64,000 nucleotides of DNA from a phage. The DNA lies in the NCBI GenBank assembly GCA_014685065.1, contig GCA_014685065.1_3930.1. The stretch is one strand, 5' to 3'. The notes below the pieces were generated by a model that did not search any database, was not told where the DNA came from, and saw nothing but the letters and a program-made list of their open reading frames with translations. How positions within the stretch are numbered: the first letter of the stretch is position 1; the number at the start of each line of letters is the position of its first letter. Shown here one piece after another: positions 39,210 to 56,805 of this stretch. The translations under genes and the position numbers were made by a program.

Positions 39210-40562
39210 TTATTCGTAAGCCACTGTACCTTTCAAGTCAACATCCAAGATAGCCCCTGCTAAGATACCTGCGAAGGTAACATCTTTCAGGATACGAGCT
39301 TTCTTGTCTGCCAAAGCAACTTGAGAGGCTTTAGGAACATTAACTGTGTAAGATGACAGGAAGTTTCTGTTGACTGCTCTTTGTAGAGAGGTTTCAATGA
39401 CTTGACGAATACGGGTAATACCAGTATCATCATAAGTAATCTTACCACCCTTCTGGTTAATTAGCAAGTCTCTCAGAGAAGTTTTCAGGTCTGATTCTAA
39501 CCAGTCAACGCCACGGACGATATCAATCCATTCCCCACCAGAAGTAATCCCTCTACGAACCACTGGAACACCACCATCAAGGTCAATAAAGTTACAGTGA
39601 CGTACATCTAAAGCAGACTTCTGAATACTTGTCAGAGGTCTCTGATTAGATGGTTGTAGAGAAGCTGCTACACCAGTTAGCTGAGCATTACCCCAAGCAA
39701 TTGAACCTGCATCATATGGAGCACCATAAGCAATGTATGCCATCTCTGGGTAGTCTTCTGCTGCTGCGTGATGCCACAAGCAAACTGTACGAGTGTACAT
39801 ACTCTTAGCAAGCTGTGCTGGAACATCATTTGCACTGGCTAATTCTGTACCTTGCAGGGCTGTTACATCGGAGTTAGCTGTAAAGAAGATTTTCTTGCGA
39901 GCCTGAATCTCAGAAGCCATTGCTAAGACAAACTGTTGAGTTCTGTCTTCTGCTGCAATGAAATACCAGTCAGTAGAGTAAGCTTCGATAGCTGCCAGAG
40001 CAGTTGATGCTGTATCGGCAGTTGTACTTGCAATATACACAGTCTGTGCTGTAGTTGTTACTTTCACAAAGTCATTATCACCAGCTTTGGTAATAATCAT
40101 TGTGGCAGAGCCATTGCTACCAGTTACGTTCACAGAAACCTTATCTTTGATTGTTGGGTCAGCTTCAATCTGTGTTTTAAACTGTTGCAACACGTTTTCA
40201 GCAGTGTCTTCAGCTTGCGCTGTATACTGATATGGTTGAGAAATTCCACCGCCAGCAGCTACAGTAATTGAGTAGTCTGTACTTTCAGCAACGGCATTAG
40301 GAATTGATACAGTGTACTGCATAGCACGTCTACCAATATAAAGCTGAGTTACTTTAGGAGTCTGACTCCAAAGTTGTTTAGCAGCCTTATATGCAGCAGA
40401 GTTTTCATCGAAATCTTCAGCAACTTCAGTTAAGGAAGTGTAACCACGGACTCTTTCTTCAAAGTTATCTGTTGAAGCTAAGAATAGTGGCAAACCAAAA
40501 CCTTCTCTTGTAGTTCCTGCGGTGTTCAATGTAATATCTACATTAACAATTGGATTCCACAT
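39210..40562 (-). CDS. putative contractile tail sheath protein
   Basis: 450 aa; size and sheath-tube-chaperone-tape measure gene order; C-terminal GAILDVDLKGTVAYE-type ending. Confidence 0.6.
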   Translation of the reverse strand: MWNPIVNVDITLNTAGTTREGFGLPLFLASTDNFEERVRGYTSLTEVAEDFDENSAAYKAAKQLWSQTPKVTQLYIGRRAMQYTVSIPNAVAESTDYSITVAAGGGISQPYQYTAQAEDTAENVLQQFKTQIEADPTIKDKVSVNVTGSNGSATMIITKAGDNDFVKVTTTAQTVYIASTTADTASTALAAIEAYSTDWYFIAAEDRTQQFVLAMASEIQARKKIFFTANSDVTALQGTELASANDVPAQLAKSMYTRTVCLWHHAAAEDYPEMAYIAYGAPYDAGSIAWGNAQLTGVAASLQPSNQRPLTSIQKSALDVRHCNFIDLDGGVPVVRRGITSGGEWIDIVRGVDWLESDLKTSLRDLLINQKGGKITYDDTGITRIRQVIETSLQRAVNRNFLSSYTVNVPKASQVALADKKARILKDVTFAGILAGAILDVDLKGTVAYE

Positions 40563-49288: not shown

Positions 49289-49309
49289 TAAGCGCCTCCG
49301 CAAATAGAA

Positions 49310-49510
49310 TTATTCAGAGTCTGTAGCAGTCTCTTCTTTCTTAACTTCGAATTTAGCATCAACAGCATCAAGAAGTGCATCCATAGATGCCTCTTTAATA
49401 TCAATACCTGTTGCTACAGATAATCTGTCTGCAATTGCCATGATAGTGTTCTGCATAAATTCCAGCTTTTTGTTAGCTTCATAAAGTTCTTTATAAACGG
49501 TCTCGCTCAT
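49310..49510 (-). CDS. hypothetical small protein upstream of terminase
   Basis: 66 aa; too small for a typical small terminase, function unknown. Confidence 0.35.
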   Translation of the reverse strand: MSETVYKELYEANKKLEFMQNTIMAIADRLSVATGIDIKEASMDALLDAVDAKFEVKKEETATDSE

Positions 49511-49634
49511 TATGTTTTCTCCAAATAATTAACCATGTTTCCCCTTAAAAAAGACGGCACAGAGACCGTCAAGGAGAAACCACAATGTACGTCAGAGACA
49601 TACTGTATAAGTCTTCCTATAAAGTATAACTCTG

Positions 49635-49694
49635 TAAAAAAGCCCTGTCTAAAAATACTCTTCGGTAGCGAAAGGAAGAATACTTATAGCAGGG
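49635..49694 (-). terminator. compound hairpin + T-run, candidate terminator of the tRNA operon
   Basis: GCCCTG (49641-46) / CAGGGC (49689-94) with a nested TCTTC/GAAGA stem; on the minus strand followed by TTTTTT (A6 at 49635-40). Confidence 0.4.
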
Positions 49695-49732
49695 CATTAT
49701 TATTATTTTAATTGAGAGAGAGTAAAATAACT

Positions 49733-49808
49733 TGGAGAATCCGAAGGGACTCGAACCCTTATAAACCTGTTTTGCAGACAGGCACATAGCCATTTCTGTC
49801 ACGGATTC
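49733..49808 (-). tRNA. tRNA-Cys (anticodon GCA)
   Basis: Hand fold: acceptor GAATCCG/CGGATTC, T-arm GGGTTCGAGTCCC, anticodon loop CTGCAAA, CCA encoded. Confidence 0.6.
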
Positions 49809-49812
49809 AAAT

Positions 49813-49905
49813 TGGAGGAAGATACCAGACTTGAACTGGTACACCGATTTCTCAGCTACTGGCAGTTTAGCAAACTGCTCCCTTACCTTTTAGGGTTAAT
49901 CTTCC
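49813..49905 (-). tRNA. tRNA-Ser (anticodon GCT), class II
   Basis: 93 nt; acceptor GGAAGAT/ATCTTCC, anticodon stem GCAGT/ACTGC with loop TTGCTAA, long variable arm. Confidence 0.55.
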
Positions 49906-49906
49906 A

Positions 49907-50641
49907 TTATTTCTGTAATGCGTTCTTCATTTCTGGTGTTGCAATAGTGTCAATTACACCAGTTTTACAGGCATCATCAAACCAGTCTGGTAAGATACCT
50001 GCTAAGAACCCATTGATATTCGTTTTAAGGTACTCTGCAATAAGGGCAGCTTCTTCTTCAATCATCTGCACAACTTCATCTGCATAAGCTGTAATCTTTG
50101 AGATACCTTCATTAATCTTACTGACAGCTTGGTTAGCTAAATCAGAAACAGTATCAAGACCCTTGTCAATAGCGTCTTGTAAGTCACTTAATACATCGTT
50201 AACACTCTCTAGTGTACTGTTAATCGTATCAATAGCTTTTTGACCATATTCTGTAGCAACACCCATAATACCACTGAACGGTGTACAACCAACTTGTTCT
50301 CCTGCTGCACCCATAACATTGGAATATCCATTTGCTACCTGCATACGTGATGAAAACTCATCAATAGATTTTTGACCGTAGTCTGTCAGGGTCTTAGTAG
50401 TTGCTGTAGTGCTTGTAAGGCTTGTTGTAAAGCTGTTTAGAAGGACTGTTGTAAGTCCAGCAGCAACAAGTTTCTCCTGCATTGTAGGGTCTGTTACAGA
50501 ACTAATAGAGCTTACAAGTGATGTAGAAGCAGCTACGGTTCCACCGAGAACTGCTGCACCAGTAATAAGTGGGTTAGAAAACCCTTTACCGGTTTTTAAG
50601 AGATTAAAAATCTCCTTACCTTGTTCTGTCATCTCTTTCAT
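49907..50641 (-). CDS. hypothetical Ser/Thr/Ala-rich protein embedded in the tRNA array
   Basis: Track ORF trimmed to an internal ATG so it does not overlap the tRNA at 50660-50734; about 244 aa. Confidence 0.4.
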   Translation of the reverse strand: MKEMTEQGKEIFNLLKTGKGFSNPLITGAAVLGGTVAASTSLVSSISSVTDPTMQEKLVAAGLTTVLLNSFTTSLTSTTATTKTLTDYGQKSIDEFSSRMQVANGYSNVMGAAGEQVGCTPFSGIMGVATEYGQKAIDTINSTLESVNDVLSDLQDAIDKGLDTVSDLANQAVSKINEGISKITAYADEVVQMIEEEAALIAEYLKTNINGFLAGILPDWFDDACKTGVIDTIATPEMKNALQK

Positions 50642-50659
50642 TAAGCACCTTTGAAATTG

Positions 50660-50734
50660 GTAGTCCAGTGGGATTTGAACCCTCTTCTCATGTTTTTCAG
50701 ACACGCGCTTTAACCATATAAGCTACTTGGACTA
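50660..50734 (-). tRNA. tRNA-Phe (anticodon GAA)
   Basis: Acceptor TAGTCCA/TGGACTA, T-loop TTCAAAT, anticodon stem CGTGT/ACATG with loop CTGAAAA. Confidence 0.5.
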
Positions 50735-50739
50735 TAAAT

Positions 50740-50815
50740 TGGGGTGACCTACGGGATTTGAACCCGTATAGACCATGTTCACAGCATGGGTCATTGCCAT
50801 TTATGATAAGGCCAC
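50740..50815 (-). tRNA. tRNA-His (anticodon GTG)
   Basis: Anticodon stem CCATG/CATGG, loop CTGTGAA; T-arm ACGGGTTCAAATCCCGT. Confidence 0.6.
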
Positions 50816-50846
50816 ATTTAAGGACTCTCGTAAGAACCCTTAGAAG

Positions 50847-50922
50847 TGGCAGCGGCATAAGGATTTGAACCTTAATAGGACAGCTTCAGAGACTGTTGCA
50901 TTGCCAGTTATGCTATACCGCT
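50847..50922 (-). tRNA. tRNA-Gln (anticodon CTG)
   Basis: D-stem GCAT/ATGC, anticodon loop CTCTGAA, T-arm TAAGGTTCAAATCCTTA. Confidence 0.55.
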
Positions 50923-50927
50923 AAATT

Positions 50928-51006
50928 TGGTACTCCATATCGGATTCGAACCGATACATAACACAGATTTTAAGTCTGGCCTCTCTGCCAATTGGAGTAA
51001 TGGAGC
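50928..51006 (-). tRNA. tRNA with Leu anticodon TAA but short variable arm (class I-like)
   Basis: Acceptor GCTCCAT/ATGGAGT, discriminator A, D-loop AATTGGCA, anticodon loop CTTAAAA, T-arm ATCGGTTCGAATCCGAT; aligns with the tRNAs at 51751 and 52329. Confidence 0.45.
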
Positions 51007-51008
51007 AT

Positions 51009-51084
51009 TGGCGGGGGATGTTGGAATTGAACCAACTTCTTCGATTTCAAAGACCGAGGTTTTAACCTTGTAAACTAATCCCCT
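51009..51084 (-). tRNA. tRNA-Gln (anticodon TTG)
   Basis: Anticodon stem TCGGT/ATCGA, loop CTTTGAA; T-arm GTTGGTTCAATTCCAAC. Confidence 0.55.
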
Positions 51085-51092
51085 TTAAATCT

Positions 51093-51650
51093 TTACTTTC
51101 TCAGTGGATGAATAAAGAATGCCAACATAACTCTTTCCCTTGAGAATGCTCTTTCTTCTGGGACAACACTTTTTAGTTTCCATCCAATATAAATTCTCCA
51201 GTAAAACTGTTTACCAAAGACTTTAATTGATGGGATAAAAGCGAATAATCCCCAAGCATTACTGTTCCACATTAGGAGATAACCTGTCTGATTATCTTCA
51301 GGGTCAGAACTTACGTTGATATTACCTTTCCACTTAGTAACATCTTTTACATCTCTTCCTAATACATGGTAAGAGAAGTTATAAGCTTTGTTTCTCCAGA
51401 GCCATCCGACTCTCTGCATGTAGACACCCAGCTTACCAATCTTTCTAATCTTAGCCCATCGTTCGATATGACCTTCGTCACCATCAATTGGATTGTCATA
51501 TGTCTCCATCCATCTAAATCCGAAAGGTAAGTGGCCTTTCTTCTCACTGTAAAATGGAACTACGAAAGGTGCTAAGATAACTGCTAAGGTTGCTGCTAAT
51601 GGTTCTAGCAAAGCTAGGAAAATCCATGAAGCATATTTTAAATATCTCAT
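51093..51650 (-). CDS. hypothetical membrane protein embedded in the tRNA array
   Basis: 185 aa; N-terminal TM segment (WIFLALLEPLAATLAVILAPFVV), Trp-rich body. Confidence 0.5.
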   Translation of the reverse strand: MRYLKYASWIFLALLEPLAATLAVILAPFVVPFYSEKKGHLPFGFRWMETYDNPIDGDEGHIERWAKIRKIGKLGVYMQRVGWLWRNKAYNFSYHVLGRDVKDVTKWKGNINVSSDPEDNQTGYLLMWNSNAWGLFAFIPSIKVFGKQFYWRIYIGWKLKSVVPEERAFSRERVMLAFFIHPLRK

Positions 51651-51669
51651 CTAAATAGCCTCTTTAAAT

Positions 51670-51745
51670 TGGCGCAGGATAAGGGATTCGAACCCCTATT
51701 AACAGCTTCGTAGACTGTTGCTCTATCCATTTGAACTAATCCTGC
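51670..51745 (-). tRNA. tRNA-Arg (anticodon ACG)
   Basis: D-arm GTTC...GAGC, anticodon stem ACAGT/GCTGT with loop CTACGAA. Confidence 0.55.
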
Positions 51746-51750
51746 AAAAT

Positions 51751-51828
51751 TGGTGTTCCAAGACGGATTCGAACCGTCACTAGTACAAGGTTTGAGCTTG
51801 CATCCTCTGCCAATTGGGATACTGGAAC
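51751..51828 (-). tRNA. tRNA with Leu anticodon CAA but short variable arm (class I-like)
   Basis: Acceptor GTTCCAG/TTGGAAC, discriminator A, D-loop AATTGGCA, anticodon stem GCAAG/CTTGT with loop CTCAAAC. Confidence 0.45.
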
Positions 51829-51829
51829 A

Positions 51830-51904
51830 TGGTACTCACTAAAGGACTTGAACCTTTTTCTTCATCTTGTAAGGGTGGTGTTTTACCATATAAACTAAGC
51901 GAGT
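51830..51904 (-). tRNA. tRNA-Val (anticodon TAC), tentative
   Basis: Good acceptor, D-arm (GTTT/AAAC) and T-arm (AAAGGTTCAAGTCCTTT); anticodon stem is weak, loop read as CTTACAA. Confidence 0.4.
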
Positions 51905-51910
51905 ATGAAA

Positions 51911-51992
51911 GAGGTCTGAAGTTGTGCCGCTAACTCAACTCCGTGGAATTTGTTACGGTCTTCAGTTGACACCAGCGGTCTTTCACTTGACC
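51911..51992. other. tRNA-sized structured element without canonical T-loop
   Basis: Terminal inverted repeat GAGGTC / GACCTC about 80 nt apart with internal hairpins (CCGT...ACGG); no GTTCRA motif on either strand. Confidence 0.35.
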
Positions 51993-51999
51993 TCTGAAT

Positions 52000-52076
52000 T
52001 GGTGCTGCTCACAGGACTCGAACCTGCATTTCCATCCTTACAAGGGATGTGTAATAGCCAATTATACGAAAGCAGC
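52000..52076 (-). tRNA. tRNA-Thr (anticodon TGT)
   Basis: Perfect anticodon stem CATCC/GGATG, loop CTTGTAA. Confidence 0.6.
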
Positions 52077-52082
52077 ATTGTT

Positions 52083-52157
52083 TGGAGCATCCAGAGGGAA
52101 TCGAACCCTCAACCTCAGTTTGGAAGACTGTAATTTTCCCGTTTAAACTATGGATGC
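52083..52157 (-). tRNA. tRNA-Gly (anticodon TCC)
   Basis: Acceptor GCATCCA/TGGATGC, anticodon loop CTTCCAA, T-arm GAGGGTTCGATTCCCTC. Confidence 0.55.
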
Positions 52158-52163
52158 ACTAAT

Positions 52164-52240
52164 TGGTGGAGAAGCAGGGAATTGAACCCTGTACTTAAGT
52201 TTGCAAAACTTATGTTTTAACCATGTAAACTACATCCCCA
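52164..52240 (-). tRNA. tRNA-Ala (anticodon TGC)
   Basis: D-stem GTTT/AAAC, anticodon stem TAAGT/ACTTA with loop TTTGCAA. Confidence 0.6.
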
Positions 52241-52245
52241 ATGTT

Positions 52246-52321
52246 TGGTACAGGTGGAGGGAATTGAACCCATCGTCTTACTGATTAAGAGTCAGCCGCA
52301 TAACCATTTTGCTACACCTGC
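52246..52321 (-). tRNA. tRNA-Lys (anticodon CTT)
   Basis: Anticodon loop CTCTTAA; paralogous in sequence to the Lys(TTT) tRNA at 53966. Confidence 0.5.
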
Positions 52322-52328
52322 ATTAATT

Positions 52329-52405
52329 TGGTACACCTAGAGAGATTCGAACTCACACTGAGCAGATTCTAAGTCTGCTGCCTCTACCAATTGGGCTATA
52401 GGTGC
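52329..52405 (-). tRNA. tRNA with Leu anticodon TAG but short variable arm (class I-like)
   Basis: Acceptor GCACCTA/TAGGTGT, discriminator A, D-loop AATTGGTA, perfect anticodon stem GCAGA/TCTGC with loop CTTAGAA, variable region only about 5 nt. Confidence 0.5.
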
Positions 52406-52663
52406 ATTAAATCTTTTTAGAGAACTTCTAAGAACCTAAGCAACAAGGTTCCACAACAAGCTGTAATAACCTTAGAAGCCCTCTAAAAAGACCTAATTTG
52501 GTCTTTGCATAGTCTTGTTTAATCCGGTGACTAGAACCTTTGGAGAGCTTGATATTATCTCTTCTCCGTGACACCTACTAGGTGCTTTACTGTGCGTGTA
52601 CGACAATACACGAGGGATACCAAAGCAACATCCGAATGAAGCTTGGCTTTAAATCTTATTAGG
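52406..52663 (-). ncRNA. structured non-coding spacer within the tRNA array (candidate small stable RNA)
   Basis: No ORF and no tRNA; several hairpins (CTTCTAAG...CTTAGAAG 8 bp; AGACC-taattt-GGTCT; CGTGTA-cgacaa-TACACG). Confidence 0.3.
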
Positions 52664-52751
52664 CGGTAAGTAAAGGAGTCGAACCCTCACCGTATCTCTA
52701 CAGTGGCAACTGTTTTCAAGACAGTTTGGCTACCATTAGCCGCTACCTACC
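52664..52751 (-). tRNA. tRNA-Ser (anticodon TGA), class II
   Basis: 88 nt; perfect anticodon stem ACTGT/ACAGT with loop CTTGAAA; long variable arm; CCA not encoded. Confidence 0.55.
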
Positions 52752-52764
52752 CCTAATAAGACTT

Positions 52765-52847
52765 TGGCATGGGACGGAGGAGTTGAACCACTTTGAAACG
52801 GTTTTGGAGGCCGTTGCTCATGCCTTAGAGTCTTAACATCGTCCCAC
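52765..52847 (-). tRNA. tRNA-Trp (anticodon CCA), atypical
   Basis: 83 nt; acceptor GTGGGAC/GTCCCAT, anticodon region ACGGC-CTCCAAA-ACCGT; T-stem imperfect. Confidence 0.4.
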
Positions 52848-52989
52848 ACTATAATTCGAAGCTTACCGTATTTTCACAACACTGTAAAGCCCCTTCTCAG
52901 ATTATTTACATGTTCTGGAAAACATGAGATACAGACCACCTCCTTACACGGAGACCCGATAAGGTCGTCTAAGCAATCTGCTAACTATT

Positions 52990-53066
52990 TGGCACACCCT
53001 ACAGGATTCGAACCTGTAACTAACGATTTAGAAGACCGTTGCTCTATCCAATTGAACTAAGGGTGC
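52990..53066 (-). tRNA. tRNA-Arg (anticodon TCT)
   Basis: Anticodon stem ACGGT/ATCGT, loop CTTCTAA; T-arm ACAGGTTCGAATCCTGT. Confidence 0.55.
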
Positions 53067-53313
53067 ATTAATCTTTAAAGACTCTCTTAGAAAGCCCTTA
53101 AAGATGCCCACCTTATTAATCATACCGTGGGCGAGTACGCCAAATTCTTTGATGAGGGATTGGAAGACCTCACTGGTGTTTAGCCTATCAAGCTACTGCC
53201 AGAAAAACATTGTCGTTTGCATTTATTTTAAATTTGCAAAATAGACGCTACGCAACGAAAACTAAGGTTACTATAAAGTGGTCACATCTCAATGTCAACA
53301 ACTTTATTGAAAT

Positions 53314-53389
53314 TGGTACTGTGAGAAGGATTCGAACCTTCTGCCTTTCGGTTATCAGCCGAATGCACATCCATATGTGCTTTCACAGC
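53314..53389 (-). tRNA. tRNA-Ile (anticodon GAT)
   Basis: Perfect anticodon stem TTCGG/CCGAA, loop CTGATAA. Confidence 0.6.
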
Positions 53390-53868
53390 ATTGTTACCCC
53401 TTCGTGTACCTCTCTGTGGCAATTTGCACACAGTAATACACACTTATCAACTTCAGACTTCATTACCTCTATAGAGAAGTGTTTTTGTCCTACTGTGAAG
53501 TCCTTTGTATTAGGGTCTAAGTGGTGAAACTCTAAAGCCTTTATGCACTTATTGTATCCACAAATTGAGCAACAACCACCTTTGTAATCAACTAAAACCC
53601 TCTTAAGTTTGTCACGAGACTTTTTAACGTGTTGTGACTTCGCTTTCTTTTCTTCATCGGGGTTTTTGTATTGTTTCAGAATACCATTTGAAATACATTC
53701 ATCACAATACTTTCTTGATTTTGGTGTTTGTTTTCCACATGAATGACAAGAGCCTTCTTGTCTTCTTTTTGGATGACTCTTGTTGTTTACCCTTGCAGCA
53801 CAAGAGCGTGAACAATATTTTCCGCCTTTAACGGCTTTGTTGTCACAATCTTTATTAGCACAAAACAT
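53383..53868 (-). CDS. HNH homing endonuclease
   Basis: Trimmed to ATG 53866-53868 (RBS GGTGA) so it does not overlap tRNAs; Cys-rich N-terminal region; C-terminal HNH motif EFHHLDPNTKD...CANCHREVH. Confidence 0.7.
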   Translation of the reverse strand: MFCANKDCDNKAVKGGKYCSRSCAARVNNKSHPKRRQEGSCHSCGKQTPKSRKYCDECISNGILKQYKNPDEEKKAKSQHVKKSRDKLKRVLVDYKGGCCSICGYNKCIKALEFHHLDPNTKDFTVGQKHFSIEVMKSEVDKCVLLCANCHREVHEGVTML

Positions 53869-53884
53869 AATATCACCAACGAAT

Positions 53885-53961
53885 TGGAGGTTCAGATGGG
53901 AATCGAACCCACATTCATAGGGCTTATGAGACCCCTGCATTACCTTATCTGCGACTGAACC
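53885..53961 (-). tRNA. tRNA-Met (anticodon CAT)
   Basis: Acceptor GGTTCAG/CTGAACC perfect; anticodon stem GGGGT/GCCCT, loop CTCATAA. Confidence 0.55.
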
Positions 53962-53965
53962 ATAT

Positions 53966-54041
53966 TGGTAGAAGTGGAGGGATTCGAACCCATCGCCTGT
54001 CAGATTAAAAGTCTGCCGCATCACCATTCTGCTACACTTCC
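53966..54041 (-). tRNA. tRNA-Lys (anticodon TTT)
   Basis: Anticodon loop CTTTTAA; T-arm ATGGGTTCGAATCCCTC. Confidence 0.5.
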
Positions 54042-54045
54042 ATTA

Positions 54046-54181
54046 AAATTATCTTTGTAGATAAGCTATCCAGACTTGCTTAAGGTCTGTAGCGATGTGC
54101 CTTGTTGGGTTTAAATCTAGAATTTACCCTTTCACTCTTTGTGGTCGCATACTCACAGGTAAGCTTAATAACTTATCTACA
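54046..54181. repeat. 19-bp perfect inverted repeat flanking a ~98-nt spacer
   Basis: aattatctttgtagataag (54046-54064) is the exact reverse complement of cttatctacaaagataatt (54163-54181); inner CAGAC...GTCTG hairpin. Confidence 0.55.
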
Positions 54182-54241
54182 AAGATAATTACCAGACCGT
54201 TGTTTATCATCTTAAGTGCTACCATTACACCAACTCGACAT

Positions 54242-54266
54242 CTGCCGAGTGAAGGAATCGAACCTT
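54242..54266 (-). other. tRNA 3'-half-like fragment (T-arm plus acceptor 3' strand only)
   Basis: Canonical GAAGGTTCGATTCCTTC T-arm followed by ACTCGGC-A, but no complementary 5' acceptor strand found within 120 nt. Confidence 0.3.
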
Positions 54267-54497
54267 CGCCTTTTCTTTACCGGAGAAATAGATTGTTTAA
54301 GTTTTGCTGTAAACGGTCTTCTGTAAATTTGTTGAGCCAGACCAAGTTTTAAATTTTCAAAATTAAATTGGCTTGAAATTTCATACATTCTTGCTGTATT
54401 TGGTCTTCTGCTCCTTTAAAGAATACTCGTAAGAACCCTTTAAGGGAGGGGCTAAATAGCCCTCTCAAAACATCATCTTGAAATACTTATTATAATT

Positions 54498-54574
54498 TGG
54501 CGGTTACGAAGGGATTTGAACCCTCATCATCTCCCGTGACAGGGGAGTATTTTAACCAGTTAAACTACATAACC
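54498..54574 (-). tRNA. tRNA-Asp (anticodon GTC)
   Basis: Perfect anticodon stem CTCCC/GGGAG, loop CTGTCAC; D-stem GTTT/AAAT. Confidence 0.6.
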
Positions 54575-54580
54575 TTTATT

Positions 54581-54668
54581 TGGTGTGCCGTGTAGGAGTC
54601 GAACCTACCGAGTCTCAATGACAAGGGATTTACAGTCCCCACCGCTACCATCTACGGGATAACGACAC
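54581..54668 (-). tRNA. tRNA-Tyr (anticodon GTA), class II
   Basis: 88 nt; anticodon stem GGGGA/TCCCT, loop CTGTAAA; long variable arm. Confidence 0.5.
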
Positions 54669-54737
54669 ATTTAATTTCTATTCAGGCTAAGGACTTGCAC
54701 CTTACAAATCGGTGAGCAATCGCTTCTCTCCTAAATT

Positions 54738-54814
54738 TGGCGGTTAGTCAGGGATTCGAACCCTGTGCCATTCGCTTAACAGGCGACCGCACATACCTTA
54801 TGTGCTTCCTAACC
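54738..54814 (-). tRNA. tRNA-Asn (anticodon GTT)
   Basis: Anticodon loop CTGTTAA; T-arm CAGGGTTCGAATCCCTG. Confidence 0.5.
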
Positions 54815-54891
54815 TTAATACATTGCCAGACCGTGTTTTTTCTTTTATCCGCAAAAAGTATTTTGTTGCTGAATACGGTCTTCTGCAAAAT

Positions 54892-54968
54892 TGGAGGCGG
54901 GTGCAGGAGTCGAACCTGCCGATACCATGCTAATGAGACATGTGAGACGCCCTTTCTCTATACCCGCA
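54892..54968 (-). tRNA. tRNA with anticodon CAT (Met or Ile2), tentative
   Basis: Anticodon stem CATGT/GCATG, loop CTCATTA (position 37 is T, unusual); 1-72 mismatch in acceptor. Confidence 0.4.
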
Positions 54969-55059
54969 ATTCTTAATGACCAGACCAAATCTCTTCTTTG
55001 TCCGATTTACCTTCAGATGAATAAGATTAAGTTTGCTGTAATTGGTCTTCTGTCAAAAC

Positions 55060-55137
55060 TGGCGTTCCAGAAGGGATTTGAACCCTCAAATATCCACTTT
55101 GAAAGAGTGGTGACTTTACCATTTTGTCTACTGGAAC
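55060..55137 (-). tRNA. tRNA-Glu (anticodon TTC)
   Basis: Perfect acceptor GTTCCAG/CTGGAAC and anticodon stem CCACT/AGTGG, loop CTTTCAA. Confidence 0.6.
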
Positions 55138-55144
55138 ATTAATT

Positions 55145-55224
55145 TGGTCTCCGTTGAAGGATTTGAACCCTCGACCCCTTGCTCCCAAAGCAAGTGCTGC
55201 TAAACCAAACTGAGCTAAACGGAG
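55145..55224 (-). tRNA. tRNA-Pro (anticodon TGG)
   Basis: Perfect acceptor CTCCGTT/AACGGAG and anticodon stem CTTGC/GCAAG, loop TTTGGGA with G37. Confidence 0.6.
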
Positions 55225-55342
55225 ATAAACTTTTCAAACTCTATGTAACCACTTTAACATTATTTTTTAGTGGTTGTCAAGAACTTTTTTAAAATATTTT
55301 TCAGTATCTTAGAAAAGCTCTCATTTCGTTTCTATGTAGAAC

Positions 55343-55371
55343 ATATTAAAGGGTATCAAACACATTGTCAA
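55343..55371 (-). promoter_or_regulatory. sigma70-like promoter reading into the tRNA array
   Basis: On the minus strand: TTGACA - 17 nt - TAATAT; lies inside a GGGTAT...ATACCC hairpin just downstream of the vWA gene stop. Confidence 0.55.
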
Positions 55372-55389
55372 TACCCTTTTTAAAACTTT

Positions 55390-56805
55390 TTACCAGATGT
55401 AACGGTCAATCATTACTGCTTTGAGCATTACGCTGATTGGGTCAAACTTCTCACCACCAAGCAGAGCTTTTAAAGTGGCTGGAGAGAACCCTGATACCAT
55501 TGCTACACCATTATCCTTAACAGATACTTCGCAAGTACCATTACGGTTTGCTAAGTACCAGAATACCAGTTGTGGCATTTTGTATCCAGCTTTTTTGTAC
55601 TTACTACGAATCGCTTCAAAGTTTGTACGACCATTAGCTCCATCAACCTGATTGAACTCCATATCAGAGAAGATAATAAGCTTACTTGGCATATCTTTCT
55701 GAGTCAAGTTGTTTCTCTTACCTGTTTCAAGAATGCGGTCAAAAGCTGCTTGTAAGTTAGTTGAGCCATATTCAACGTGTCGCATCACCTGACGATGACG
55801 GTTTCGTAAATCACCACTCAGTTCGATGAAGTGAGGGTTTGTCGAATAAACCATCAACTCATTCTTAAAGCAACCTGTATTGCGTTCTGCTACATACAAG
55901 GCAAGTGATACACCAATATCCAGAGCAGTAATGGAGCCAAAATTCACCCAAGACATTGAACTTGATACATCAGACATACACAAGATGTTTTCACCTTCTG
56001 CCATCCAGTTTGGTAGTGCTTTCCACTGCTCATTAGCAACATCTGCATTACCATACTTGACAGATTTAATCACATCGTATGGGTAAACAGCACCAGCGTT
56101 AATCTTAGTCTCACCTTTTGATAAGGACTCGATGTAAGCTTTGTAACGCTCTCCATCTTTACGGTTAAACAGTTTTTGGTAACGTGCAGCAGCAAGTGAA
56201 GGAATCTTACTGTAGTCAATCTTACCAAACTCATTAGCAGAGATTTTTTGCTCAACTGTATCAGATAGTGCAGACAACAGTGTGCGATACTCTTTCTCAC
56301 TCAAGTTTGCAAACTTGCAGAAACGTTTTACAAACTGTTTGTGACGTGGTTTTACTCGTGGTAACCACTTAGCTGCTAAACCTGCTGTTGCAGGGTCTAG
56401 TAAAGCTGCTTCTAAATGTTTGAAGGCATCTGTCTCGAAACGAGTACCTACAAAGATTTTGAAGTCATCAAAGCGACCAAGCTCTGCAATCTTATCCATA
56501 ATGCGAAGAACCTGCGTAGGCTCTAAAACTTTATCTTCAATCGCTTGAAGTAAAACAGTTCGGAAAGCTTTACGCTCACCCATACCTTCTCGTACATCTC
56601 GCATATGCAGTAAAATACGAACTGCAACATCAACATCCTCATGCAAAGCTTTGTAGAACAAGTCTGGTAAGATTTCTACATTGCTACGGCTGGAACCAGC
56701 AGCTTTGTAAAAGTCCACAAGAGCAGACATTGATGAAGTATGGTTTACAGCACCATTTTCAGTTCGACCTGCATGAAGGTGCGCATGTTTAAATAATTCG
56801 CTCAT
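55390..56805 (-). CDS. von Willebrand factor A (vWA) domain protein, possibly Ro60/TROVE-like
   Basis: 471 aa; C-terminal region has a MIDAS-like DxSxS motif (MSDVSSSMS) and later LIIFSDMEF; N-terminal half is helical. Adjacent to the tRNA array. Confidence 0.5.
   Translation of the reverse strand: MSELFKHAHLHAGRTENGAVNHTSSMSALVDFYKAAGSSRSNVEILPDLFYKALHEDVDVAVRILLHMRDVREGMGERKAFRTVLLQAIEDKVLEPTQVLRIMDKIAELGRFDDFKIFVGTRFETDAFKHLEAALLDPATAGLAAKWLPRVKPRHKQFVKRFCKFANLSEKEYRTLLSALSDTVEQKISANEFGKIDYSKIPSLAAARYQKLFNRKDGERYKAYIESLSKGETKINAGAVYPYDVIKSVKYGNADVANEQWKALPNWMAEGENILCMSDVSSSMSWVNFGSITALDIGVSLALYVAERNTGCFKNELMVYSTNPHFIELSGDLRNRHRQVMRHVEYGSTNLQAAFDRILETGKRNNLTQKDMPSKLIIFSDMEFNQVDGANGRTNFEAIRSKYKKAGYKMPQLVFWYLANRNGTCEVSVKDNGVAMVSGFSPATLKALLGGEKFDPISVMLKAVMIDRYIW

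Follow-up and report, generated by a model that had tools for sequence, protein, structure and literature searches.

Two conserved protein-coding genes embedded in the tRNA array of a Felix O1-like phage

Here, we describe two protein-coding genes that lie between transfer RNA (tRNA) genes in a phage genome (NCBI GenBank assembly GCA_014685065.1, contig GCA_014685065.1_3930.1). The stretch of DNA analyzed, hereafter “the window”, comprises 64,000 nucleotides (nt). One open reading frame (ORF), ORF1 (49907..50641, minus strand), encodes an acidic protein of 244 amino acids (aa) that is predicted to be all-helical and belongs to the family DUF7217. The other, ORF2 (51093..51650, minus strand), encodes a 185-aa protein of the family DUF7338, predicted to be anchored in the membrane by its N terminus and to have a Trp-rich alpha/beta domain. 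The explanation that best accounts for the evidence overall, and that we consider likely, is that these are two conserved Felixounavirus genes, corresponding to ORF49 (ORF1) and ORF48 (ORF2) of phage Felix O1, that they are co-transcribed with the tRNAs, and that ORF48 is a later insert. The finding as such was already known: hundreds of genomes carry annotations of these genes, their RNA was detected in Felix O1 in 2010, and the Felix O1 genome paper already documented the genes, where they lie, and that they are transcribed.

Both ORFs are conserved phage genes

A 2.5-kb query around both ORFs matched 292 phage records, 214 of them at ≥80% query coverage. Nearly all of these 214 records are 95–99% identical to the query, and they are overwhelmingly Felixounavirus phages with Escherichia, Salmonella, or Shigella hosts; the region is 96–99% identical to >200 Felixounavirus records. 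Comparison at this level places the source genome among the Felix O1-like myoviruses (Felixounavirus). In the Felix O1 reference record, ORF49 (NP_944879) and ORF48 (NP_944875) occupy the corresponding positions, flanked by the same tRNAs, and the encoded proteins are 95–96% identical to those of the window. Indeed, we see no material difference between the two genes described here and their orthologs in >200 Felixounavirus genomes, which are the same genes at the same positions. The supplementary table of the Felix O1 paper lists ORF49 as “CHP”, with 244 aa and an isoelectric point (pI) of 4.3, and ORF48 as “CHP; membrane protein”, with 185 aa and a pI of 10.1, both being positive by reverse transcription PCR (RT-PCR) (PMC3185647).

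An original prediction, made from the letters of the DNA, had described ORF1 as a Ser/Thr/Ala-rich protein of ~244 aa and ORF2 as a Trp-rich membrane protein of 185 aa. Both descriptions and both sets of coordinates are confirmed: Thr, Ala, and Ser make up 30% of ORF1 (25.7 kDa, pI 4.3), and ORF2 (21.9 kDa, pI 9.8) has 10 Trp residues (5.4%) and a single strong hydrophobic helix at residues 9–31.

Three lines of evidence support a protein-coding status for the ORFs: conservation of the reading frames, purifying selection, and homologs in other phage families. Pairwise ratios of nonsynonymous to synonymous substitution rates (dN/dS) are 0.08–0.11 for ORF1, including the comparison with Citrobacter phage Moogle at a dS of ~1.2, and 0.05–0.20 for ORF2. 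ORF1 matches DUF7217 (PF23854) with a score of 296.5 bits (E 2.2e-88) across profile positions 2–238 of 238, and ORF2 matches DUF7338 (PF24027) with 209.4 bits (E 4.3e-62) across positions 1–176 of 180; the curated gathering cut-offs, which apply to whole-protein scores, are 29 and 27 bits, respectively. In the PHROG classification, ORF1 belongs to PHROG 2114 and ORF2 to PHROG 2143. Homologs of ORF1 are found in 582 phage records, including those of Ackermannviridae, and homologs of ORF2 in 565 records, including those of Straboviridae at 56–62% identity. Judged from these comparisons, both ORFs are genuine genes under strong purifying selection, and the expectation that their frames are conserved in related phages is borne out.

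The alternative, that the ORFs are chance or decaying frames that yield no product, has next to no probability. In 500 shuffles of 49500–52000, the longest ORF beginning with ATG averaged 75 aa and never exceeded 177 aa, compared with 244 aa observed, such that the lengths of the ORFs exceed those from all 500 shuffles. Values of dN/dS remain at 0.05–0.2 even at saturating dS, both proteins belong to curated Pfam families with hundreds of members, and AlphaFold2 (AF2) models of both are confident. On the sequence data, conservation rules against chance frames to the extent that this alternative is effectively refuted.

Neither protein had been thought to contain a recognizable motif. This is true of functional motifs, none of which is known for either protein, but both match Pfam DUF families. 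In Pfam and NCBIfam, neither ORF has a match to a nuclease family, and neither contains an HNH, GIY-YIG, or LAGLIDADG nuclease motif; in NCBIfam, ORF2 had no hits at all, and those of ORF1 were coiled-coil noise below the threshold. A Foldseek search of BFVD recovered only uncharacterized family members. Profile searches of PDB sequences gave only chance-level matches for both proteins, among them a flavivirus M-protein stretch that resembles the WLWRNxxY motif of ORF2 (E 0.43; see below) and coronavirus HR1 coiled coils; for ORF1, PDB matches had E-values of 0.75 or worse. Literature searches on DUF7338 and DUF7217 found no paper that names either family.

Probable expression together with the tRNAs

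The array comprises 26 tRNA genes (49733–55224; ARAGORN), all on the minus strand. As originally predicted, ORF1 and ORF2 are located on this same strand between tRNA genes. Rfam searches of 49300–55500 confirmed the tRNAs and found no other family above threshold there. Both ORFs are tightly spaced with respect to the tRNAs on either side. ORF2 begins 19 nt after tRNA-Arg(ACG) (51670..51745, minus strand), which is directly upstream, and its stop codon is 8 nt from tRNA-Gln(TTG) (51009..51084, minus strand); both tRNAs were identified with ARAGORN and Rfam. ORF1 begins 16 nt after the end of tRNA-Phe (50658..50733, minus strand), and only 1 nt separates its stop codon from tRNA-Ser(GCT) (49813..49905, minus strand), the junction being at 49906–49909. 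The final gene of the operon is tRNA-Cys (49733..49808, minus strand); these three tRNAs were identified with ARAGORN. The short spaces upstream of the ORFs contain Shine-Dalgarno-like sequences that can be read directly from the DNA: AAAGGTG (50646..50652, minus strand), which ends 4 nt ahead of the ORF1 ATG, and AAAGAGG (51659..51665, minus strand), which ends 8 nt ahead of the ORF2 ATG. The gaps between ORFs and tRNAs are conserved across relatives: the spacing between the ORF1 stop codon and tRNA-Ser is 1–2 nt in phages allfine, Felix O1, VpaE1, and Moogle, and ~8 nt in the distant Yersinia phage P778. The ORF1 leader does not differ among allfine, Felix O1, and VpaE1.

The placement of candidate promoters and terminators is consistent with transcription of both ORFs as part of the tRNA operon. 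In a consensus scan, good sigma-70-like sites on the tRNA strand were found only upstream, inside or before the array. The nearest strong site upstream of both ORFs is TTGACA-17-TATAGT (53270..53298, minus strand), with 11/12 matches to the consensus. This site (53298..53270) is the same as P45, a promoter predicted in the Felix O1 paper (PMC3185647). Two more sigma-70-like matches, at 55371 and 55280 (55251..55371, minus strand), are located just upstream of tRNA-Pro, the first tRNA of the array. Terminator hairpins were found only after tRNA-Cys, with none before its end. A 193-nt region after tRNA-Cys contains two hairpins with U-runs and has a folding energy of −58.6 kcal/mol (z = −5.3). 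The first terminator-like structure, identified by folding, is a long GC-clamped hairpin with a U-run (49635..49695, minus strand); the second, identified by folding and by a scan, is a hairpin with a T-run (49545..49570, minus strand) that is positioned just before the genes that follow the array on the same strand, i.e., a 66-aa ORF, the large terminase gene, and the portal gene.

RT-PCR data from Felix O1 show that the corresponding RNAs exist. Transcripts of ORFs 45, 46, 48, and 49, all of which are downstream of P45, were maximal at 5 min, while that of ORF51 was maximal at 60 min and that of the terminase gene at 25 min (PMC3185647). The timing in that table is crude and weighs against relying on it for more, since the major capsid gene was also placed at 5 min (PMC3185647); we therefore use the table only as evidence that the RNAs exist. 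A literature search for Felix O1 RNA-seq or transcript end mapping found none.

The best reading of the geometry and the published RT-PCR is that both ORFs are made as parts of tRNA-messenger RNA (mRNA) precursors, since the geometry leaves no room for promoters of their own; the earlier suggestion that they are probably expressed from the tRNA operon transcript is supported by the 19/8 and 16/1 nt gaps, by the placement of promoters and terminators, and by the Felix O1 RT-PCR. Independent expression of the two ORFs, from promoters of their own rather than with the tRNAs, is very unlikely. Weaker promoter-like sequences are indeed positioned nearer to the ORFs, and these are a point against co-transcription from the strong upstream sites: in a scan that covers promoters of the sigma-70 type only, there are 9/12 matches at 52877..52848 and, inside ORF2, at 51213..51186. 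However, promoter-like matches in the region are no more frequent than in shuffled sequences (23 found versus 25.2 expected), the ATG of each ORF is only 16–19 nt from the preceding tRNA in a space that is filled by the Shine-Dalgarno sequence, and a transcript that starts further upstream would still read through tRNA genes.

RNase P cleaves precursor RNAs at the 5′ ends of tRNAs, as is well established biochemically. Under co-transcription with the tRNAs, host RNA polymerase would transcribe the ORFs from the sigma-70-type promoters of the array within tRNA-mRNA precursors, and tRNA processing, by RNase P at the 5′ ends and by RNase E and exonucleases at the 3′ ends, would release each coding region. 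The released mRNAs would be short, with a leader of 16–19 nt that contains its own Shine-Dalgarno sequence and with almost no 3′ untranslated region; cleavage by RNase P at tRNA-Ser would end the ORF1 message one base after the UAA.

ORF1 is an ancestral resident of the array, and ORF2 is a later insert

The two genes differ in their history. In all related groups compared, i.e., Felix O1-like phages, Moogle-like phages, Kolesnikvirus, and P778, the ORF1 homolog is positioned just upstream of the module comprising the small ORF, terminase, and portal genes. In Moogle (82% identity) and P778 (36–40% identity), it lies between the last tRNAs and the terminase gene, with tRNA-Ser(GCT) next to it downstream. 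The homolog of Erwinia phage Tian (Kolesnikvirus; 45% identity) closes the tRNA array, after which come the small ORF and the terminase and portal genes. By comparison of these arrays, ORF1 is an ancestral resident of the array 3′ end.

By contrast, Moogle, P778, and Tian have no ORF2 at the equivalent junction. The tRNA-Arg(ACG) and tRNA-Gln(TTG) genes are 7 nt apart in Moogle and ~70 nt apart in P778, with no ORF2 between them, and in Tian an Arg tRNA adjoins a Gln tRNA without an ORF between them, a match that covers the amino acid identity of these two tRNAs only. Alignment reveals a clean insert of ~580 bp in the window at the tRNA-Arg(ACG)/tRNA-Gln(TTG) junction, which indicates that ORF2 is a later cassette inserted between these two tRNA genes. 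An 8-bp direct repeat, ATTTAAAG, identified from the alignment and the sequence, flanks the insert, with one copy at the upstream flank (51662..51669, minus strand) and one at the downstream flank (51083..51090, minus strand). The repeat resembles the single ATTTAATAG spacer at the same junction in Moogle. It could be a footprint of the insertion; two copies in AT-rich DNA could also be due to chance. The transfer of ORF2 is not recent, since its nearest relatives outside the genus, in T4-like phages, are only 56–62% identical. In VpaE1, there is no tRNA-Arg(ACG), and ORF2 directly follows tRNA-Leu(CAA) (contig L010, 6306–6404); thus, the tRNA content around ORF2 varies within the genus.

ORF1, a DUF7217 protein

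The mechanically called ORF1 extends to a GTG at 50704, which would give a protein of 265 aa. We take the ATG at 50641 to be the correct start because the GTG is located inside tRNA-Phe, because most of the listed homologs have 244 aa (the full-length ones have 242–253), and because the Pfam and PHROG matches begin at residues 7–8 of the 244-aa protein. Some GenBank records, e.g., that of allfine gene 42 (contig L001, 4408–5205), use the upstream GTG and thus have a 265-aa protein whose gene overlaps tRNA-Phe.

The AF2 model of ORF1, built from an alignment with sequences down to 26% identity, has a predicted local distance difference test (pLDDT) score of 93.7 and is an all-helical bundle with one helix of 57 residues. 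The alignment has 15 invariant positions, including C119, C225, and a W-x-x-D-x-C motif near the C terminus; the two Cys residues are invariant down to 26% identity. An Ala/Ser/Thr-rich stretch of ORF1 is moderately hydrophobic, with a best 19-residue hydropathy of 1.62, and is probably the source of the “putative membrane protein” labels on some ORF1 records. The same stretch is not hydrophobic in the Ackermannviridae consensus, and we therefore regard ORF1 as soluble.

Members of DUF7217 in Ackermannviridae, e.g., Det7 gp24, ViI Vi01_142c, CBA120 orf171, and AG3 gp147, match ORF1 over its full length with 26–30% identity, including the two invariant Cys residues. Unlike ORF1, their genes are located away from tRNAs, between head genes and genes for a gp3-like tail-completion protein and UvsY. 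The ViI homolog, Vi01_142c (contig L033, 4904–5632), is 94% identical to Det7 gp24 and is annotated as “phage associated protein”, a label that the ViI record restricts to ~10 ORFs in structural neighborhoods. Other Kuttervirus records probably owe their “structural protein” annotations to this label. According to the CBA120 paper, proteomics of ViI found 41 particle-associated proteins, 18 of which were uncharacterized (PMC3184105). We infer that the “phage associated” label is linked to these virion proteomics; that the meaning of the label has to be inferred counts against a particle-associated role for ORF1.

Our tentative view of ORF1, which we hold with less than firm confidence, is that this soluble, acidic helical bundle is a low-copy particle-associated or morphogenesis-linked protein; failing this, it would have an early intracellular function. 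Several points weigh against an association with the particle. ORF49 is absent from the list of virion proteins identified by shotgun proteomics of Felix O1 (PMC3185647). Proteomics of VpaE1 identified 22 virion proteins (PMC4690856), and the VpaE1 record has gp047, the homolog of ORF1, as “hypothetical protein” and the portal as “putative structural protein”. The text of the Felix O1 paper does assign a 51-kDa virion band to “gp49”, likely the sheath (PMC3185647), but this size does not fit the 25.7 kDa of ORF49. A mass of 51 kDa fits a sheath-sized gene of 450 aa (40562..39210, minus strand), the eleventh gene after the terminase gene, and the “gp49” statement is probably a slip in numbering that was carried into the list of structural proteins in the abstract.

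An early intracellular protein for host takeover or anti-defense, with no part in the virion or its assembly, is a possible alternative. Such a role would suit the acidic, soluble character of ORF1 (its hydrophobic stretch not being kept in Ackermannviridae), its location in an early-type tRNA operon with RNA maximal at 5 min, and its lack of detection in the Felix O1 shotgun and VpaE1 virion proteomes. It fits less well with the strict synteny that ORF1 keeps with the packaging and head genes across all Ounavirinae-like phages, with the position of the gene beside head and tail-completion genes in Ackermannviridae, where the ViI homolog is labeled as phage associated, or with the weak but repeated profile matches of ORF1 to tape-measure and minor-tail families.

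More specific identities for ORF1 were considered and rejected. Tape-measure proteins usually have >600 aa and are encoded between the tail-chaperone and baseplate genes. ORF1 is not a tail tape-measure protein: it has 244 aa, its gene is outside the tail module, and its PHROG matches to tape-measure and minor-tail families are weak (best E 4.4e-6). ORF1 also matches the C-terminal half of PHROG 289, “GTP-binding domain”, with E 4e-19; this label stems from YspA/SLOG proteins, which are encoded two genes upstream in Kuttervirus and have been lumped with DUF7217, and hence does not describe ORF1. Lastly, ORF1 is positioned upstream of the large terminase gene (TerL) and so might be taken for the missing small terminase (TerS), but it has no match to a TerS family in Pfam, PHROG, or NCBIfam, and Det7 and ViI carry a gp16-like TerS in addition to the DUF7217 gene.

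ORF2, a predicted membrane protein of the family DUF7338

An alignment of ORF2 with 30 relatives has invariant or nearly invariant residues at T50, D52, and G57, and in the motifs W-L-W-R-N-x-x-Y and G-W-K-x-K. A strong N-terminal transmembrane (TM) helix is present in 30/30 of the aligned relatives, and the mean charge of the sequences flanking it is +2.6 on the N-terminal side and −0.2 on the C-terminal side. The predicted topology is that of a signal anchor in the inner membrane with the N terminus inside and the C terminus outside (N-in/C-out), which would place a large C-terminal domain in the periplasm. In the AF2 model built from this alignment (pLDDT 94.9), a long helix at the N terminus is accompanied by several short ones and by a sheet of five strands; the predicted fold has no match among PDB structures. 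A DUF7338 profile search of a library of 1.8 billion representative sequences recovered 892 clusters at 50% identity, almost all of them single-domain proteins of ~180 aa. Members from other phages, e.g., RB43 ORF080w, Matisse gp82, VR5 gp136, and Aeh1 ORF319w, match ORF2 over its full length, the T4-like ones with 56–62% identity, and share with it the motifs T-x-D-N...G-D, W-L-W-R-N-x-x-Y, and G-W-K-L-K.

Only in Felixounavirus is a DUF7338 gene wedged directly between two tRNAs; elsewhere, the genes are found at the junction of tail-fiber and lysis genes or in lysis cassettes. Nonetheless, the association with tRNAs is broader than this. In five T4-like lineages (VR5, Matisse, GuL6, UTK0003, and contig L026), the DUF7338 gene is ≤1 kb from tRNA genes and on the same strand; in contig L026 (4001–4679), it ends 36 nt ahead of tRNA-Met. 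These lineages imply that the association with tRNAs arose at least twice, although the arrangement within T4-like phages may be a single inherited one.

The second recurrent association is with lysis genes. The DUF7338 gene is located within three genes of an endolysin gene in 4 of ~12 independent contexts (Aeh1 and contigs L007, L025, and L024), for which the binomial P is 3e-4 to 4e-3 if a background of 3–6%, which is assumed rather than measured, is applied. In Aeh1, where the DUF7338 gene (ORF319w) has a Pfam E-value of 1.7e-50, the order is distal tail-fiber gene, DUF7338, lysozyme e, an ORF of 101 aa with a TM segment and coiled coil, and a convergent asiA; the three-gene block (contig L028, 42359–43699; positions 225658–226998 of the record) is found where T4 has 38 and t, ahead of asiA. 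Contig L007 (2296–3714) has a tail-fiber gene followed by DUF7338, a 96-aa TM/coiled-coil protein, a GH108 endolysin, and a spanin. Contig L025 (3875–5115) has a tail-fiber gene, DUF7338, a 114-aa TM/coiled-coil protein, an M15 endolysin, a holin-like gene, and spanins. In contig L024, a holin gene, a lysozyme gene, and two spanin genes precede DUF7338. Thus, the trio of DUF7338, a protein of ~100 aa with an N-terminal TM segment and coiled coil, and an endolysin occurs in two unrelated metagenomic phages (L007 and L025); that the same trio is found in Aeh1 suggests a conserved gene pair. No gene in the whole 233-kb Aeh1 genome is annotated as t or rI, and a tblastn search of that genome with T4 T gave a best E-value of 3.3, although a very divergent T could escape a single query. 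Aeh1 may use a different holin system.

ORF2 is most likely an accessory factor at the cell envelope. Within this, a role in lysis timing or in association with a holin is a tentative proposal that we hold with reserve, and we rank lysis control somewhat ahead of superinfection exclusion. Several observations count against it. In Felixounavirus, ORF2 is not near lysis genes and is apparently early, which is a poor fit to a holin; Moogle, Tian, and P778 have no ORF2 at this site and still lyse their hosts; T4-like phages carry DUF7338 together with the holin T; contigs L007, L024, and L025 have small holin-like genes of their own; and many DUF7338 contexts, several of them metagenomic, are uninformative.

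The same observations bear on a stronger claim, which we consider improbable: that ORF2 is itself the holin, a T4 T-like hole-former of class III in which a single TM helix at the N terminus precedes a large domain in the periplasm. ORF2 is labeled “holin” in the records of Salmonella phage Mushroom, Citrobacter phage HP1, and Escherichia phages UPEC01 and UPEC03, with no evidence stated. The predicted topology does resemble that of T4 T, and the Aeh1 member is found at the t locus beside lysozyme e in a genome in which no T homolog was found. Moreover, no holin-lysin cassette was recognized in the Felix O1 paper, whose candidates are guesses (PMC3185647). However, the DUF7338 profile and T4 T are not homologous (hhalign probability 0.2%), ORF2 has no match to the Pfam family Phage_holin_T at E-values up to 1, and the gene is driven by a sigma-70-type operon with RNA that is maximal at 5 min, at which point expression of a holin would be expected to be harmful. 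Together with the coexistence of DUF7338 with T and with small holin-like genes, and its absence from this site in phages that must still lyse, this favors an accessory role over that of the holin itself. The hhalign and Pfam results also led us to reject the more specific idea that ORF2 is a homolog of the T holin. An i-spanin was likewise rejected: in place of the periplasmic coiled coil of an i-spanin, the ORF2 model has a mixed alpha/beta domain, and the space between the tRNAs holds no gene for a partner, which would be an outer-membrane lipoprotein. Moreover, an overlapped pair of spanin genes is already present at another locus in Felix O1-like phages (PMC6139136).

That ORF2 is a “moron” for superinfection exclusion or receptor masking, i.e., an early membrane protein that guards the infected cell or the released progeny against adsorption or DNA injection, is rather unlikely, though not as improbable as a holin. 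The patchy, cassette-like distribution of DUF7338 and its clean insertion are as expected for such a gene, as are the reported early expression and the predicted N-in/C-out membrane topology. Exclusion and seroconversion genes often adjoin tail-fiber genes, and DUF7338 genes adjoin tail-fiber or tail-spike genes in Aeh1, L007, L025, and Serratia phage Totoro. These tail-fiber neighborhoods are endolysin loci too, and so do not discriminate between exclusion and lysis control. Moreover, ORF2 has no similarity to known exclusion proteins and no match in Pfam or NCBIfam beyond the DUF.

A further proposal takes the lysis-control role beyond ORF2 to the whole family. DUF7338 might be an unrecognized lysis-control family, a holin or a holin partner with a new fold, that has displaced T/RI in Aeh1-like phages and travels among unrelated virulent phages as a cassette that often lands in tRNA regions. 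We regard this as a long shot.

Other features of the array

Two embedded protein genes had been predicted, and both are present, but the array has a third: an HNH homing-type endonuclease gene of 161 aa (53383..53868, minus strand; 53868..53383 in the direction of transcription), identified by its HNH motif and by a match to phrog_2255 (E 1.6e-33). This gene begins 16 nt after tRNA-Met, has a 7-nt overlap with tRNA-Ile, and is the counterpart of Felix O1 ORF44. The two further HNH genes and the small ORF46 of the Felix O1 array are missing in the window.

Four tRNA-free gaps of 238–456 nt are found inside the array (54042–54497, 53067–53313, 52752–52989, and 52406–52661, minus strand). None contains a convincing ORF or an Rfam family above threshold; the sole Rfam match is a sub-threshold, tmRNA-like one of 15.9 bits at 53067–53256. 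The gap at 53067–53313 contains the P45-like promoter.

Directly upstream of the array, at 55390–56805 (minus strand), is a gene for a 471-aa DUF2828/DUF7788 protein (PHROG 850, “RNA-binding protein”). At the other end, a promoter-like sequence, TAGACA-17-TATACT (49623–49651, minus strand), is positioned between the two terminator hairpins after tRNA-Cys and could be the start of a transcript for the packaging and head genes.

Comparison with known systems

Mixed tRNA-mRNA operons have been described elsewhere, e.g., the E. coli thrU-tyrU-glyT-thrT-tufB operon, and the tRNA punctuation model of mitochondria rests on a similar principle. By analogy with these systems, the phage genes share one strand with the tRNAs, there is no room for separate signals, and processing would set the ends of the mRNAs. 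Unlike tufB, the phage ORFs are located inside an array of 26 tRNAs and are butted to tRNAs on both sides, and their arrangement is known here from geometry.

With regard to its protein, ORF2 resembles T4 holin T in that one TM helix in the N-terminal part is combined with a large domain predicted to be periplasmic, and the Aeh1 member of DUF7338 is found beside lysozyme e at a place equivalent to the T4 locus 38-t-asiA. ORF2 is unlike T in that it has no sequence or profile similarity to it, has its TM helix at the extreme N terminus, and differs in genomic context and expression.

As discrete genes between tRNAs, ORF1 and ORF2 are also reminiscent of the homing-endonuclease genes found in tRNA clusters, such as Felix O1 ORF44, ORF45, and ORF47, and T4 segB. 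ORF2 shares with such inserts the clean insertion with a flanking 8-bp repeat. Unlike homing endonucleases, neither ORF has a nuclease motif, and ORF1 is ancestral rather than mobile.

Implications

As stated, the finding that two protein-coding genes are embedded in the tRNA array matters little. It does provide a natural bacterial test case: ORFs that are butted against tRNAs, with a stop codon 1 nt from an RNase P site, could be used to ask how tRNA processing shapes the ends, stability, and termination of mRNAs. The one lead with some promise is DUF7338, a structurally orphan family that is linked to lysis or the envelope. The family is large (892 clusters), has a confidently predicted fold that matches no solved structure, and repeatedly occurs near endolysin genes and at the locus of the T4 holin. 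This makes it an inexpensive candidate for a novel function in lysis or at the envelope, one that would be relevant to phages of the therapeutic type, e.g., Felix O1 and the T4-like phages of Klebsiella and Enterobacter. If DUF7338 proteins do control lysis, then in Felixounavirus their dose and timing would be set by transcription of the tRNA operon and by tRNA processing.

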